Made by a program: the position numbers and the translations under genes. A stretch of DNA of 43,428 nt from the IMG/VR virus record IMGVR_UViG_3300045988_029530, positions 1 to 43,428 of that record; one strand, given 5' to 3'. Positions 2,851 through 4,950 of this stretch are shown here, one piece after another; the stretch's first letter is position 1, and the number at the start of each line of letters is the position of its first letter. The stretch is from a virus. A model generated the notes under the pieces. That model did no database searches, was not told the origin of the DNA, and saw only the letters and a list, made by a program, of their open reading frames with translations.

Positions 2851-3195
2851 TCAAGAAAATTGTCTTTCCGCTCGCAAACTCGCCCCGTTTTCCGTGTCTA
2901 GAATGTAAGTAATTAGTTTTTTGTAACCCATCGCGCGGGCAGCCCTCCACGCGGCAGCATATAGCATGGAGCAGGCATTTCTTGTGCCGTCTGTGCAAAG
3001 CCGATTGACCTCTAATGTCCAGCCATTATCAAGATGCCGTGCGACCGGTCTCCCAACAATCGCTACCCCGACTATTTTTTCTCCATCGGTGCAGCCTATC
3101 GAGAACTTATGCCCAGCAACGGGCTTGTGATGGCGATGATGCGCTTCAACAAATGCATTCGCTTCTTTCAGGGTTATCGGGCATATTTCAAGCAT
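2851..3195 (-). CDS. XF1762-family / GNAT-fold-like protein, possibly C-terminally truncated
   Basis: ANAFVEAHHRHHKPVAGHKF...VGVAIVGRPVARHLDNGWTLEVNRLCTDGTRNACSMLYAAAWRAARAMGYKKLITYIL..ENGASLRA matches my memory of this prophage family. It ends about 30-40 aa earlier than usual. The start overlaps the MTase stop by 8 nt. Confidence 0.55.
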   Translation of the reverse strand: MLEICPITLKEANAFVEAHHRHHKPVAGHKFSIGCTDGEKIVGVAIVGRPVARHLDNGWTLEVNRLCTDGTRNACSMLYAAAWRAARAMGYKKLITYILDTENGASLRAERQFS

Positions 3196-4069
3196 CAGCG
3201 CTTTCCTCCATCCTCGTTAATTCCTCCCGCAGAGCGCGGAAGATCGGATATGCCTGCTGCGGTACTACCGCGTTCCCGAGGCATTTAAGTCTGTCCACCC
3301 GATGGGGAATCCCTGAAGCCACTCTACCCACGTCGGGTTCAGTTGCCCAGCAACGTCCGTCCGCAAACTCCTGTGATTCGCGCCTCCGGTCGTCCCCGTT
3401 GCGTCCGCCGCGCATGGTGTCGTTAACAAACTCATCGCAACGGCATTTGTCAGATTGCATTTCCCCGGCTCCTTCTGCCTGGGCCGGCGTCGGTTCTTTC
3501 TTCCCCCGTTCGTTGCCTGCTTCTTCATCGCCTCGTAGCTGCGGCAGGCCATACTGTCCATCGTGTTCGGTGTAGCCCACAAAGAACACCCTTGCTCTCC
3601 TGTGCCAAGCTCCGACAGCCGCAGCTTCAAATTGGAACACGACGACGTGATACCCTGTCTGCTCCAGATCCTTGACCACTTGCCCGGCGGCAATCTTGAG
3701 GATTCCAGGAACGTTTTCACCGACAACGCAATGCGGGCGCAGCTCTCGGATAACTCGGAGCATTTCAGGCCATAGGTAACGGTCATCTCCTTTTCCTTTT
3801 TGCTTTCCTGCCACGGAAAACGGCTGACAGGGGAATCCGCCGGAAATAACGTCAACTGTTCGTAGTCCTGTTCGCTCATAGAAGCTCTCCTTTGTCAAAG
3901 TCCGGATGTCGCGCCAACGCGGCACGTCCGGCCAGTGCTTTTCCAGCACCTTTGTGGGATAGTCGGCAAATTCGCACTGTCCGACGGTTTCAAACCCGGC
4001 CCATTCCGCCGCCAGATCCAGCCCGCCGATGCCGCTAAACAGGCTCAGGTGCGTCACCCCCGGCATCAT
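3188..4069 (-). CDS. DNA (cytosine-5)-methyltransferase
   Basis: Motif I LFSGIGGLDLA, IV GGFPCQPFSVAGK, VI VVGENVPGIL, VIII GAWHRRARVFFVG, X RLKCLGNAVVPQQ. ATGA overlap with the upstream PAPS-reductase-like gene. Confidence 0.9.
   Translation of the reverse strand: MMPGVTHLSLFSGIGGLDLAAEWAGFETVGQCEFADYPTKVLEKHWPDVPRWRDIRTLTKESFYERTGLRTVDVISGGFPCQPFSVAGKQKGKGDDRYLWPEMLRVIRELRPHCVVGENVPGILKIAAGQVVKDLEQTGYHVVVFQFEAAAVGAWHRRARVFFVGYTEHDGQYGLPQLRGDEEAGNERGKKEPTPAQAEGAGEMQSDKCRCDEFVNDTMRGGRNGDDRRRESQEFADGRCWATEPDVGRVASGIPHRVDRLKCLGNAVVPQQAYPIFRALREELTRMEESADA
3265..3879 (-). CDS. Nested +1-frame ORF (204 aa) inside the methyltransferase gene; TRD / motif-IX-like product
   Basis: ATG 3879 preceded by AAGGAG with a 7-nt spacer. 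The product contains LTLFPADSPVS, MTVTYGLKCSEL, SLWATPNTMD, LTTPCAADA and LNPTWVEWLQGFPIGWTDL. Hand-counted GC3 is higher than in the outer frame over the overlap. See the corresponding finding. Confidence 0.45.
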   Translation of the reverse strand: MSEQDYEQLTLFPADSPVSRFPWQESKKEKEMTVTYGLKCSELSESCARIALSVKTFLESSRLPPGKWSRIWSRQGITSSCSNLKLRLSELGTGEQGCSLWATPNTMDSMACRSYEAMKKQATNGGRKNRRRPRQKEPGKCNLTNAVAMSLLTTPCAADATGTTGGANHRSLRTDVAGQLNPTWVEWLQGFPIGWTDLNASGTR

Positions 4070-4950
4070 CCTTCCTCCTCAAACAGTGACATTTGCCCCG
4101 GTAGCACGCCGTCCTCCATCCACCAGTGGAAAACGTCCACACCAGTGTTTCCCCACCGCTTTTCGGCCTCAGTCTTGCCGCGCTTGCGCCGCTCATTTAG
4201 CATCCTGTCAAAGGCCATGATGTAGGCCTTTTGATACTTTGGATACTTCGCAAACTCCACCGTTCGGTGCTTTCCTGCCATCGGACATCCGATGCAGCCG
4301 ACGCGCTTCCAGCCGCAGGCGTAAAGCGGGTTCATCTGGATTTTTTCGCTCTCGCAGTAGTCCAGCACATCCCGCTCTGCCCAGTCGATTATCGGATTCG
4401 CAATTCTTTTCCCTTTTAATTGGCAAGTTTCAAACAGCCGTCGATCTTCGTCGTTGTCGTTTAGCAGAATCAGGCTTTTCTTCCTGTCGCGGTGTTGCAC
4501 TTCAAGGCTTCCACGGTTCTTGGCTCTGGCGGCGCTTTCTTCCCAGCGGACACCCGTCGCGATAAAGCGTCCTCTCCCGCCGCCCTCTTTCAGCTCAGCG
4601 CAGCAGTATCGTTTTAGCCGTGTTGGAGGCATCAGCTTCCGAGGAATCAGGTTCCACATGGTAACGCGCTTACCGTTTGGCCGAGCATGCATGTCTACTT
4701 CGCATTTAATTCCGCGTTCTTCGAGGCGTCGGAAGGTACCACGGATGTGATAGACTGTTTCCGGCGCATCCGCTGTTGTCAGGCTGTGCAATACCTCAAA
4801 TGGAATTCCGCTATTTTCGGCCAGCCGTATAAGCACGTCGCTGTCCTTCCCGCCAGAGTAGGCGATCAGAAGCGGCATCTTGAAAAGCCGCAGGGACATA
4901 TCCGAGGCGCATTTTAGCCGCTCGATCGCGGTTTGCTCAAGATCGCTCAT
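4066..4950 (-). CDS. Phosphoadenosine-phosphosulfate (PAPS) reductase family / N-type ATP-pyrophosphatase-like protein
   Basis: P-loop-like AYSGGKDSDVL motif and a C-terminal Cys cluster (CGWKRVGCIGCP). GGAGG 5 nt before the ATG. Confidence 0.85.
   Translation of the reverse strand: MSDLEQTAIERLKCASDMSLRLFKMPLLIAYSGGKDSDVLIRLAENSGIPFEVLHSLTTADAPETVYHIRGTFRRLEERGIKCEVDMHARPNGKRVTMWNLIPRKLMPPTRLKRYCCAELKEGGGRGRFIATGVRWEESAARAKNRGSLEVQHRDRKKSLILLNDNDEDRRLFETCQLKGKRIANPIIDWAERDVLDYCESEKIQMNPLYACGWKRVGCIGCPMAGKHRTVEFAKYPKYQKAYIMAFDRMLNERRKRGKTEAEKRWGNTGVDVFHWWMEDGVLPGQMSLFEEEG

Follow-up and report, generated by a model that had tools for sequence, protein, structure and literature searches.

Can one stretch of phage DNA, read in two frames of the same strand, encode two parts of a single DNA-modifying enzyme? 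This question is raised by a C5-cytosine DNA methyltransferase (C5-MTase) gene on the minus strand of IMG/VR virus record IMGVR_UViG_3300045988_029530, whose 43,428 nucleotides (nt) are hereafter called the window. Wholly within the open reading frame (ORF) of this gene, termed the outer ORF, lies a shorter ORF in the +1 frame that is led by its own Shine-Dalgarno (SD) sequence. A sequence-only reading of the window had pointed out this nested ORF and had suggested that the methyltransferase is dual-coded or split. We confirmed the coordinates of both ORFs as well as the AAGGAG, the 7-nt spacer, and the ATG of the nested one (Table 1), and every peptide quoted in that reading is present in the translations. 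Dual coding is supported in substance by the analyses described below, and a two-chain enzyme is the function that we infer from them.

Specifically, we consider it probable that the locus encodes a heterodimeric C5-MTase, whose alpha and beta subunits are specified by two reading frames of the same DNA stretch. Both products would be made and would associate with each other, and beta would be required for methylation and would have a role in specificity.

Both reading frames are conserved and kept open

The distance from the start of the outer ORF to the nested ATG is 190 nt, which places the latter in the +1 phase, with nested codon position 1 at outer position 2. The overlap spans 615 nt, meaning that the nested ORF is fully contained. 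Under synonymous-shuffle nulls, which leave out phylogenetic non-independence and dinucleotide context, such a pair of open frames is rarely obtained. When the outer protein was held constant, 0.3% of shuffles left the nested frame of the window open, and the reverse test gave 0.7%. Approximately 4.0 stop codons are expected in the nested frame when the outer protein is fixed and approximately 6.9 in the outer frame when the nested protein is fixed, and none is observed. At most loci, no more than ~1% of synonymous shuffles leave either frame open.

Similarity between loci was judged against the same type of null. The nested frame resembled that of the window more than did any of 150 outer-synonymous shuffles in each of 18 distant loci (18/18; z = 4-10), and the reverse test of the outer frame against nested-synonymous shuffles at these loci gave z = 6-12. 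A comparison of homologs had been proposed as a check in the sequence-only reading, and it reveals a nested frame that is conserved beyond what the outer frame forces. The inversion in G+C content at third codon positions (GC3) that had been counted there was also reproduced. Outer-frame GC3 falls from 77.4% in the 63 codons that precede the overlap to 54.9% within it, and that of the nested frame is 70.1%. The long ORFs of the window have a mean GC3 of 69% (standard deviation 10).

Conservation of the nested frame is not uniform. When the nested ORF was split at its first WPTP-type module and each half was compared with shuffles, the C-terminal half exceeded the null in every case (z = 3.7-10.3). 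The N-terminal half, comprising ~100 residues that lie over outer motifs IV-VIII, gave z values from -0.8 to 4.6, and its similarity among relatives (LTLFPADSPVS, MTVTYGLKC) appears to be mostly a by-product of those outer motifs. Independent selection on the nested frame is therefore confined to its C-terminal half. The N-terminal leader nevertheless has a conserved start, and all 64 distinct loci keep it open (median P(open) 0.064 per locus).

Nucleotide diversity sorted by codon phase gives a matching picture. At nested positions 1/2/3 it is 0.05/0.33/0.06 over the motif IV zone and 0.14/0.30/0.19 in a second zone within outer motifs IV-VIII, with the peak in both zones at outer position 3. 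The peak moves to nested position 3 in the repeat region (0.43/0.40/0.55) and in the motif IX-like region (0.16/0.14/0.29). Together, codon-phase diversity and the split shuffle test indicate that dominance passes from the outer frame to the nested one near motif VIII.

The signals for nested translation are also retained. An SD-like GGAG, GAGG, or AGGA is present at -16 to -6 in 53 of 73 distinct regions upstream of the nested start in relatives, and this start is usually located 16 codons 5' of the outer PCQ. Toward the end of the overlap, the segment that reads GQLNPxWVEWLMGFPxGWTDL in the nested frame and EPxVGRVxxGxPxRVDRLK in the outer frame hardly varies in nucleotide sequence from phylum to phylum, save at nested-synonymous sites; choosing the loci on that motif makes this analysis partly circular. 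A partial check comes from E. coli prophage genes, which share 85.7% DNA identity, in this stretch only, with a gene of a metagenome-assembled genome (MAG) of the marine gammaproteobacterium Sansalvadorimonas (L128). In sum, both ORFs are kept open, and in selected parts both frames are conserved beyond mutual forcing.

The outer product has a methyltransferase body and a predicted disordered linker

The outer translation contains FSGIGG, GGFPCQPFS, ENV, HRRARVFFVG, and LGNAVVPQ, which correspond to C5-MTase motifs I, IV, VI, VIII, and X. Pfam family PF00145 matches residues 7-171 (6e-38, 131 bits with a cut-off of 22; profile positions 3-166 of 324), and the NCBIfam model TIGR00675 matches residues 8-194 (4e-34, 118.7 with a cut-off of 100.65). 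The best coverage is given by phrog_363, a family of short phage methyltransferases that extends over residues 2-282 (4.4e-83). Because the Pfam alignment stops short of motif X, the assignment of this motif (residues 264-271, unvarying among relatives) rests on the motif itself and on the full-length phrog_363 match. The outer C-terminus also reaches profile positions 287-318 of phrog_1008.

No target recognition domain (TRD) or motif IX is recognized in frame between outer motifs VIII and X, where the Pfam alignment has ended at residue 171. In an AlphaFold2 (AF2) model, the ~170 N-terminal residues align to the large domains of M.HaeIII and M.HhaI, and residues 169-256 have no secondary structure and a predicted local distance difference test score (pLDDT) of 27-34. 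Confidence in the outer model is low overall (pLDDT 49) because the alignment was shallow, and the model is used here for topology and for the unstructured linker only. Among relatives this linker is unalignable and of variable length. Both the lack of a recognizable motif IX in the outer frame and the low complexity of its TRD region, as noted from the sequence alone, are thus borne out by the Pfam boundary and by the model. By its motifs, profile matches, and predicted fold, the outer product is identified as a C5-cytosine DNA methyltransferase.

The nested product belongs to a methyltransferase-associated family

The nested translation contains LTLFPADSPVS, MTVTYGLKCSEL, SLWATPNTMD, LTTPCAADA, and LNPTWVEWLQGFPIGWTDL. 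Its residues 3-165 are matched by phrog_1008, which is annotated as "DNA methyltransferase" (1.4e-20), and phrog_26627 also matches the product (6.8e-7). A profile search of the 204-residue product, named beforehand as a check on the nested frame, therefore returned a significant family along with thousands of homologs.

The same reading had described motifs of the nested product as specific to the C5-MTase family. This holds at the level of patterns: LNPTWVEWLQGFPIGW fits L-x-P-x5-L-[MQ]-G-[FY]-P-x2-[WFY]. The profile libraries and alignments considered below lend the description no support, and the label "motif IX-like" is accordingly a pattern-level one, since none of the profile methods connects the C-terminal half of the nested product with a canonical TRD or motif IX. 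A resemblance between WPTPTARDYKG and the TRD core of E. coli Dcm (TRTLSARYYKDG) was dropped for want of statistical support and is not used as evidence.

The nested layout is widespread

A tblastn search with the nested product found 55 phage records, and every record that was inspected, including those of Paenibacillus, Lacticaseibacillus, and gut phages, has a +1-shifted match inside the methyltransferase match. A profile built from five nested products gathered at least 5274 clusters at 90% identity. With A3, an alignment of 61 nested sequences, 37,891 representatives at 50% identity were found with E <= 1e-3, of which 19,432 had E <= 1e-10. Nesting within a methyltransferase gene was confirmed for 588 loci of viral and 513 of genomic origin, distributed over Bacillota, Bacteroidota, Planctomycetota, Proteobacteria, Chloroflexota, Synergistota, and the Candidate Phyla Radiation. 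The closest relatives are MAGs of Oscillospiraceae.

The layout of the window is present in ~174 of 201 related loci that were fetched, in which the third frame is full of stops, and among ~200 loci the nested ORF occurs only inside C5-MTase genes. It is maintained in genomes ranging from 32% to 63% GC. Genes picked by their outer frame only, such as mycobacteriophage Che9d-type genes and that of Bacillus phage yong1, are dual-frame as well, and so are E. coli prophage methyltransferase genes picked because their DNA resembles the doubly coded segment. Dcm genes on plasmids or prophages of the Bacillus cereus group also bear a nested ORF. Outer products in the family range from ~240 to 560 amino acids and nested products from ~155 to 420. 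The subunits of M.EcoHK31I, a two-chain methyltransferase discussed below, reportedly have 309 (alpha) and 176 (beta) amino acids, and would fall within this range.

Relatives distribute the motifs in different ways

We call type B the layout of two relatives, L069 and L146, that belong to different phyla. Their alpha chain ends right after motif VIII, and the nested-type chain does not end at the IX-like motif but extends into motif X (...RLKxLGNAxVPQ). The full motif set is therefore on neither chain alone, and the layout of phrog_1008 agrees with this division. These chains tie the nested product to the methyltransferase enzyme.

Repeats are another source of variation. Relatives carry from 0 to 9 WPTPxAxD modules, and insertions read as well-formed WPTP modules in the nested frame and as low-complexity text in the outer frame. 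An extreme expansion of repeats in doubly read DNA is the nested ORF of L011 (3001-4263; P0042), with 420 amino acids and about nine WPTPxAxD modules, where the outer frame is open across the whole 1.26 kb and reads as a repeat of the GEDVPHAD/GQNVAHAD type.

Several relatives have rearranged or damaged frames. In a gut-phage lineage (L007-L010; e.g., L007 2800-2920; P0012), a 5-nt insertion, TAGTC, is located within outer motif I (FSGI/GG). Single-indel frame swaps were found in the metagenomic relatives L024, L027, L028, L029, and L136. In L027, L029, and L136, motifs I-VIII are fused in frame to the nested repeat/IX part, leaving motif X orphaned. Fusion of the nested frame to motif X is a further example among the swaps. 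These could be assembly errors, pseudogenes, or natural alternative splits. In E. coli prophages L175 (2881-3642) and L176 (2898-3635), ENS replaces ENV and motif X reads GNGQVP. The +1 ORF of both begins one base past the outer start codon (MSWLFSQALAEE...), such that nearly the whole gene is read twice. The outer gene of L175 is annotated as a pseudogene because of an internal stop, and its +1 frame is interrupted too.

Two proteobacterial clusters of ~430 residues, P0272 and P0325, combine nested-type sequence (95% query coverage) with a Dam N6-adenine methyltransferase domain (PF05869), and in phage Lily a Dam gene is located directly upstream of the C5-MTase gene. The combined proteins may represent read-through fusions of Dam with the +1 frame.

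Comparison with known methyltransferases

In single-chain C5-MTases, motifs I-VIII and X form the large domain, and the variable region (TRD) together with motif IX forms the small domain; the great majority of characterized C5-MTases act as monomers, and the searchable literature treats M.AquI and M.EcoHK31I as the only exceptions (PMC3404938). The outer product shares the large-domain fold and motifs I, IV, VI, VIII, and X with M.HhaI, M.HaeIII, and E. coli Dcm. It differs from them in having no in-frame TRD or motif IX, and the nested segment is missed by their family profiles. When the two frames of the window are read alternately, the order typical of single-chain enzymes (I-VIII, variable region, IX-like, X) is recovered.

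M.EcoHK31I, which acts on YGGCCR in E. coli HK31 (Lee, Kam & Shaw 1995, as cited in PMC2836561 and PMC3404938), is the closer precedent. According to these two sources, its beta subunit is encoded wholly within the alpha gene in another frame, both subunits are required, alpha carries motifs I-VIII plus X, whereas beta carries motif IX; the N-terminal part of beta governs association rather than catalysis (PMC2836561). The window likewise has a same-strand, other-frame nested beta ORF and an alpha with motifs I-VIII and X. The likeness is one of gene architecture. There are also differences. M.EcoHK31I is part of a restriction-modification system; the gene in the window is a phage orphan. The literature assigns the TRD to alpha, whereas in the window the region of alpha between motifs VIII and X is an unconstrained, predicted disordered linker and selection acts in the beta frame. 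A large protein search with the nested ORF of an E. coli prophage returned only unnamed or "hypothetical" proteins.

M.AquI (CYCGRG) was the precedent cited in the sequence-only reading. Its smaller subunit carries motifs IX and X (PMC3404938), and its N-terminal catalytic motifs are likewise on one chain. Such a distribution is found in the type B relatives L069 and L146, whose beta also has the variable region and to which this precedent applies. The window keeps motif X on alpha and has a fully nested beta, an architecture that fits M.EcoHK31I better than M.AquI.

Artificial N- and C-terminal fragments of M.HhaI, M.BspRI, M.BsuRI, and M.SssI reassemble non-covalently (PMC3404938). Those are in-frame gene splits, whereas the split in the window is natural, ancient, and made of overlapping frames. 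Long same-strand overlaps with a dominant and a passenger frame in each segment are also known from overprinted genes of small phages and RNA viruses (PMC8227390). In contrast, the present family resides in large double-stranded DNA phages and prophages in which room for genes is not obviously scarce, its products appear to be parts of one enzyme, and the dominant frame switches inside the overlap.

An orphan C5-MTase of B. anthracis prophage LambdaBa01, BA_3814, has a predicted M.EaeI specificity, YGGCCR, which is the same site as that of M.EcoHK31I (PMC4722110). Together with the nested ORFs of the B. cereus group, it is a possible indirect bridge from this family to M.EcoHK31I and M.EaeI. 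Literature searches returned no family-wide description of nested genes in phage C5-MTases. The closest prior record is GenBank annotation, in which LILY_63 carries the note "g62 internal gene" and the name methyltransferase is given to TADHANA_54 as well as TADHANA_55. Thus, the architecture is already known as the EcoHK31I type, and its family-wide, multi-phylum scale appears to be unreported in the searchable literature.

A candidate two-subunit enzyme

The proposed enzyme would be built as follows. Alpha, the outer-frame product, would supply the large catalytic and S-adenosylmethionine (AdoMet)-binding domain with motifs I-VIII and the motif X helix, and would have a flexible tether free of sequence constraint where single-chain enzymes carry the small domain. 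Beta would be translated in the +1 frame from its own SD and ATG, 16 codons 5' of the catalytic PCQ. Its first ~100 residues would be an overprinted leader that, by analogy with M.EcoHK31I, may dock beta onto alpha. The C-terminal half, with one to several WPTPxAxD modules followed by LNPxWVEWLMGFPxGWT, would serve in trans as the small domain, equivalent to the TRD and motif IX. The complete enzyme is most likely an orphan phage or prophage methylase that would protect phage DNA. This alpha/beta reading draws on an outer frame that supplies exactly the large-domain elements and has no predicted structure at the TRD position, on a stretch from motif VIII to motif X in which the nested frame alone is under selection, and on the type B relatives.

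A number of results weigh against such an enzyme. The Pfam and NCBIfam libraries contain no match to the nested product, and profile searches of PDB sequences with the whole nested alignment, the IX-like motif, or the WPTP module found no C5-MTase. A chimera composed of outer motifs I-VIII, the nested repeat/IX part, and outer motif X, examined at three loci with shuffled and deletion controls, gained no score against PF00145 or TIGR00675, and homology to a canonical TRD or motif IX is therefore unsupported by that test. When the nested profile was compared with E. coli Dcm by hhalign, the sole place aligned was Dcm motif IX (RLTPRECARLMGFE), with an E value of 0.33, and the profile of the WPTP module aligned nowhere. 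AF2 modeling of the nested protein alone from the 61-sequence alignment gave a pLDDT of 50 and a predicted template modeling score of 0.23. In the outer frame, synonymous diversity drops only modestly inside the overlap, from 0.52 to 0.39-0.48. Finally, alpha is truncated in the widespread L007-L010 lineage, for which the contig collection lists 72 blocks, but the nested ORF is intact there, as is the remaining outer frame. This could reflect recent inactivation of alpha, or a role of beta without alpha.

Alternative explanations

Some of these points could be accommodated if the nested product is selected as a separate overprinted phage protein, perhaps a regulator of the methyltransferase, a DNA-binding or anti-defense factor, or a factor for another modification enzyme. 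The failure of every profile method to connect the product to a canonical TRD or motif IX would then be expected, as would the intact beta next to a broken alpha in L007-L010 and the fusion of nested-type sequence to Dam (PF05869) in some proteobacterial relatives; a module number that varies from 0 to 9 is likewise unusual for a TRD. We nevertheless regard a separate protein as unlikely. The nested ORF is confined to C5-MTase genes among ~200 loci, the type B nested-type chain carries the motif X that its alpha is missing, an alpha with no structured region at the TRD position needs a recognition partner, and the layout is shared by M.EcoHK31I, for which the two-chain arrangement is experimentally proven (PMC2836561).

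The heterodimer must also be compared with a single methyltransferase made by programmed frameshifting, in which ribosomes would shift +1 into the nested frame after motif VIII and -1 just before motif X, making the nested start irrelevant. Such a product would join outer I-VIII, nested repeat/IX, and outer X in the canonical motif order with plausible spacing, and natural variants (L027, L029, L136) do link I-VIII in frame to the nested TRD/IX part. It would, however, need two shifts per molecule, and no conserved slippery heptamer is evident, although no systematic scan was made; the residues at the junction vary (RVFFVG, RVFILG, RTFIVA, RVWIVA). Frameshifting would also leave no need for an outer linker that stays open even at 330 residues, or for a nested leader that is open behind a conserved SD and ATG ~100 codons upstream. 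For M.EcoHK31I, removal of the beta start codons left the enzyme inactive, and activity returned when beta was supplied in trans (PMC2836561). The open outer linker, the conserved nested start, and the open leader lead us to judge frameshifting quite improbable as the sole explanation.

Least of all do we favor a chance open frame whose conservation is an outer by-product, a frameshifted pseudogene, or a sequencing artifact: alternative frames are frequently open at 57% GC, outer motifs IV-VIII largely account for the nested N-terminal half, and frames are scrambled in the metagenomic relatives L024 and L027-L029, but the chance ORF and the pseudogene are rejected by the shuffle tests, which the nested C-terminal half exceeds throughout, and by codon-phase diversity with nested periodicity in the 3' half, and there remain a conserved start and SD, a layout retained from 32% to 63% GC beside a third frame full of stops, and an identical outer protein (P0121) in independent assemblies. 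The earlier assertion that the nested frame is not due to chance accordingly holds, with ~174 of 201 loci keeping the layout and the nested frame of the window open in 0.3% of shuffles.

Organization of the locus

The features of the two ORFs are compiled in Table 1. The minus strand immediately 5' of the nested start reads ...ACAAAGGAGAGCTTCT-ATG. The outer ORF begins with ATGATG, which overlaps the TGA stop codon (4066-4068) of the gene upstream, and the second ATG (4064-4066) may be the true start. Protein P0121, with 292 amino acids, is 100% identical to the outer product and is represented by two contigs from two source collections.

Table 1. Positions of the two overlapping ORFs and of their signals and motifs in the window
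Feature	Position	Strand	Basis or remark
Outer ORF, putative alpha subunit, 293 aa	3188..4069	-	Translation; PF00145, phrog_363, and TIGR00675 matches
Nested +1-frame ORF, putative beta subunit, 204 aa	3265..3879	-	Translation; phrog_1008 and phrog_26627 matches
Shine-Dalgarno AAGGAG of nested ORF	3887..3892	-	Read from sequence; outer frame is Lys-Glu of LTKESFY
7-nt spacer; nested ATG	3880-3886; 3877-3879	-	Read from sequence
AGGAGG 5' of outer start	4074..4079	-	Read from sequence
Outer motif I FSGIGG (AdoMet binding), single-coded	4022..4039	-	No variation in alignments A2 and A4
Outer motif IV GGFPCQPFS (catalytic Cys)	3815..3841	-	Translation; +1 frame is ADSPVSRF
Outer motifs VI-VIII	3575..3718	-	ENV 3710-3718, RRARVFFVG 3575-3601; nested residues ~54-102 passenger
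Outer linker, residues 166-243 (~78 aa), charged, low-complexity	3341..3574	-	Same DNA is nested repeat region
Nested modules SLWATPNTMD; LLTTPCAADATG	3556-3585; 3394-3429	-	Within outer-linker DNA
Doubly constrained segment	3286..3348	-	Nested frame GQLNPTWVEWLQGFPIGWTDL (motif IX-like); outer frame EPDVGRVASGIPHRVDRLK (pre-X, 3284-3340)
Outer motif X LGNAVVPQ	3257..3280	-	Mostly just beyond nested stop codon 3265-3267

The upstream neighbor (4066-4950, minus strand) encodes a 3'-phosphoadenosine 5'-phosphosulfate (PAPS)-reductase domain (PF01507, 2e-17). Downstream, a Mom-family gene (2851-3195, minus strand; PF25680, 6e-7) overlaps the outer 3' end by 8 nt. The PAPS-reductase-like gene, the methyltransferase, and the Mom-like gene look like a small DNA-modification cluster.

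Annotation and implications

Current gene catalogs record only part of this arrangement. In public metagenome and NCBI MAG gene calls (L006, L007-L011), the nested ORF is listed and the enclosing methyltransferase is omitted, which leaves an apparent gap of ~180-240 nt upstream of the nested ORF. The RefSeq annotation pipeline PGAP does the opposite, and the nested product is dropped or named "hypothetical protein." Gene callers admit just one member of a nested same-strand pair, and in either case the sequence clusters left half-annotated number in the tens of thousands. If alpha needs beta, cloning or specificity prediction from the annotated "dcm" ORF alone would fail or mislead, and this would bear on phage host-range engineering, on restriction-modification evasion, and on the REBASE-style transfer of specificities.

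More tentatively, the nested beta design may be ancestral and nearly universal in a large clade of short phage and prophage C5-MTases, with WPTPxAxD modules as exchangeable specificity units. This clade would comprise about 38,000 clusters at 50% identity from phages of Actinomycetota, Bacillota, Proteobacteria, Bacteroidota, and others. If so, these genes would be among the oldest and most widespread long same-strand overlapping pairs outside small viruses, and the gain or loss of modules (1-9 copies) in the +1 frame would reset or multiply target specificity while the alpha frame merely stays open.

With hundreds of diverged examples, the family is a large natural data set for the evolution of overlapping genes, in which dominance switches within the overlap and repeats grow in one frame while the other just stays open. 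It also suggests that the heterodimeric C5-MTase design is common in phages, and that the placement of the M.EcoHK31I TRD on alpha merits re-examination.

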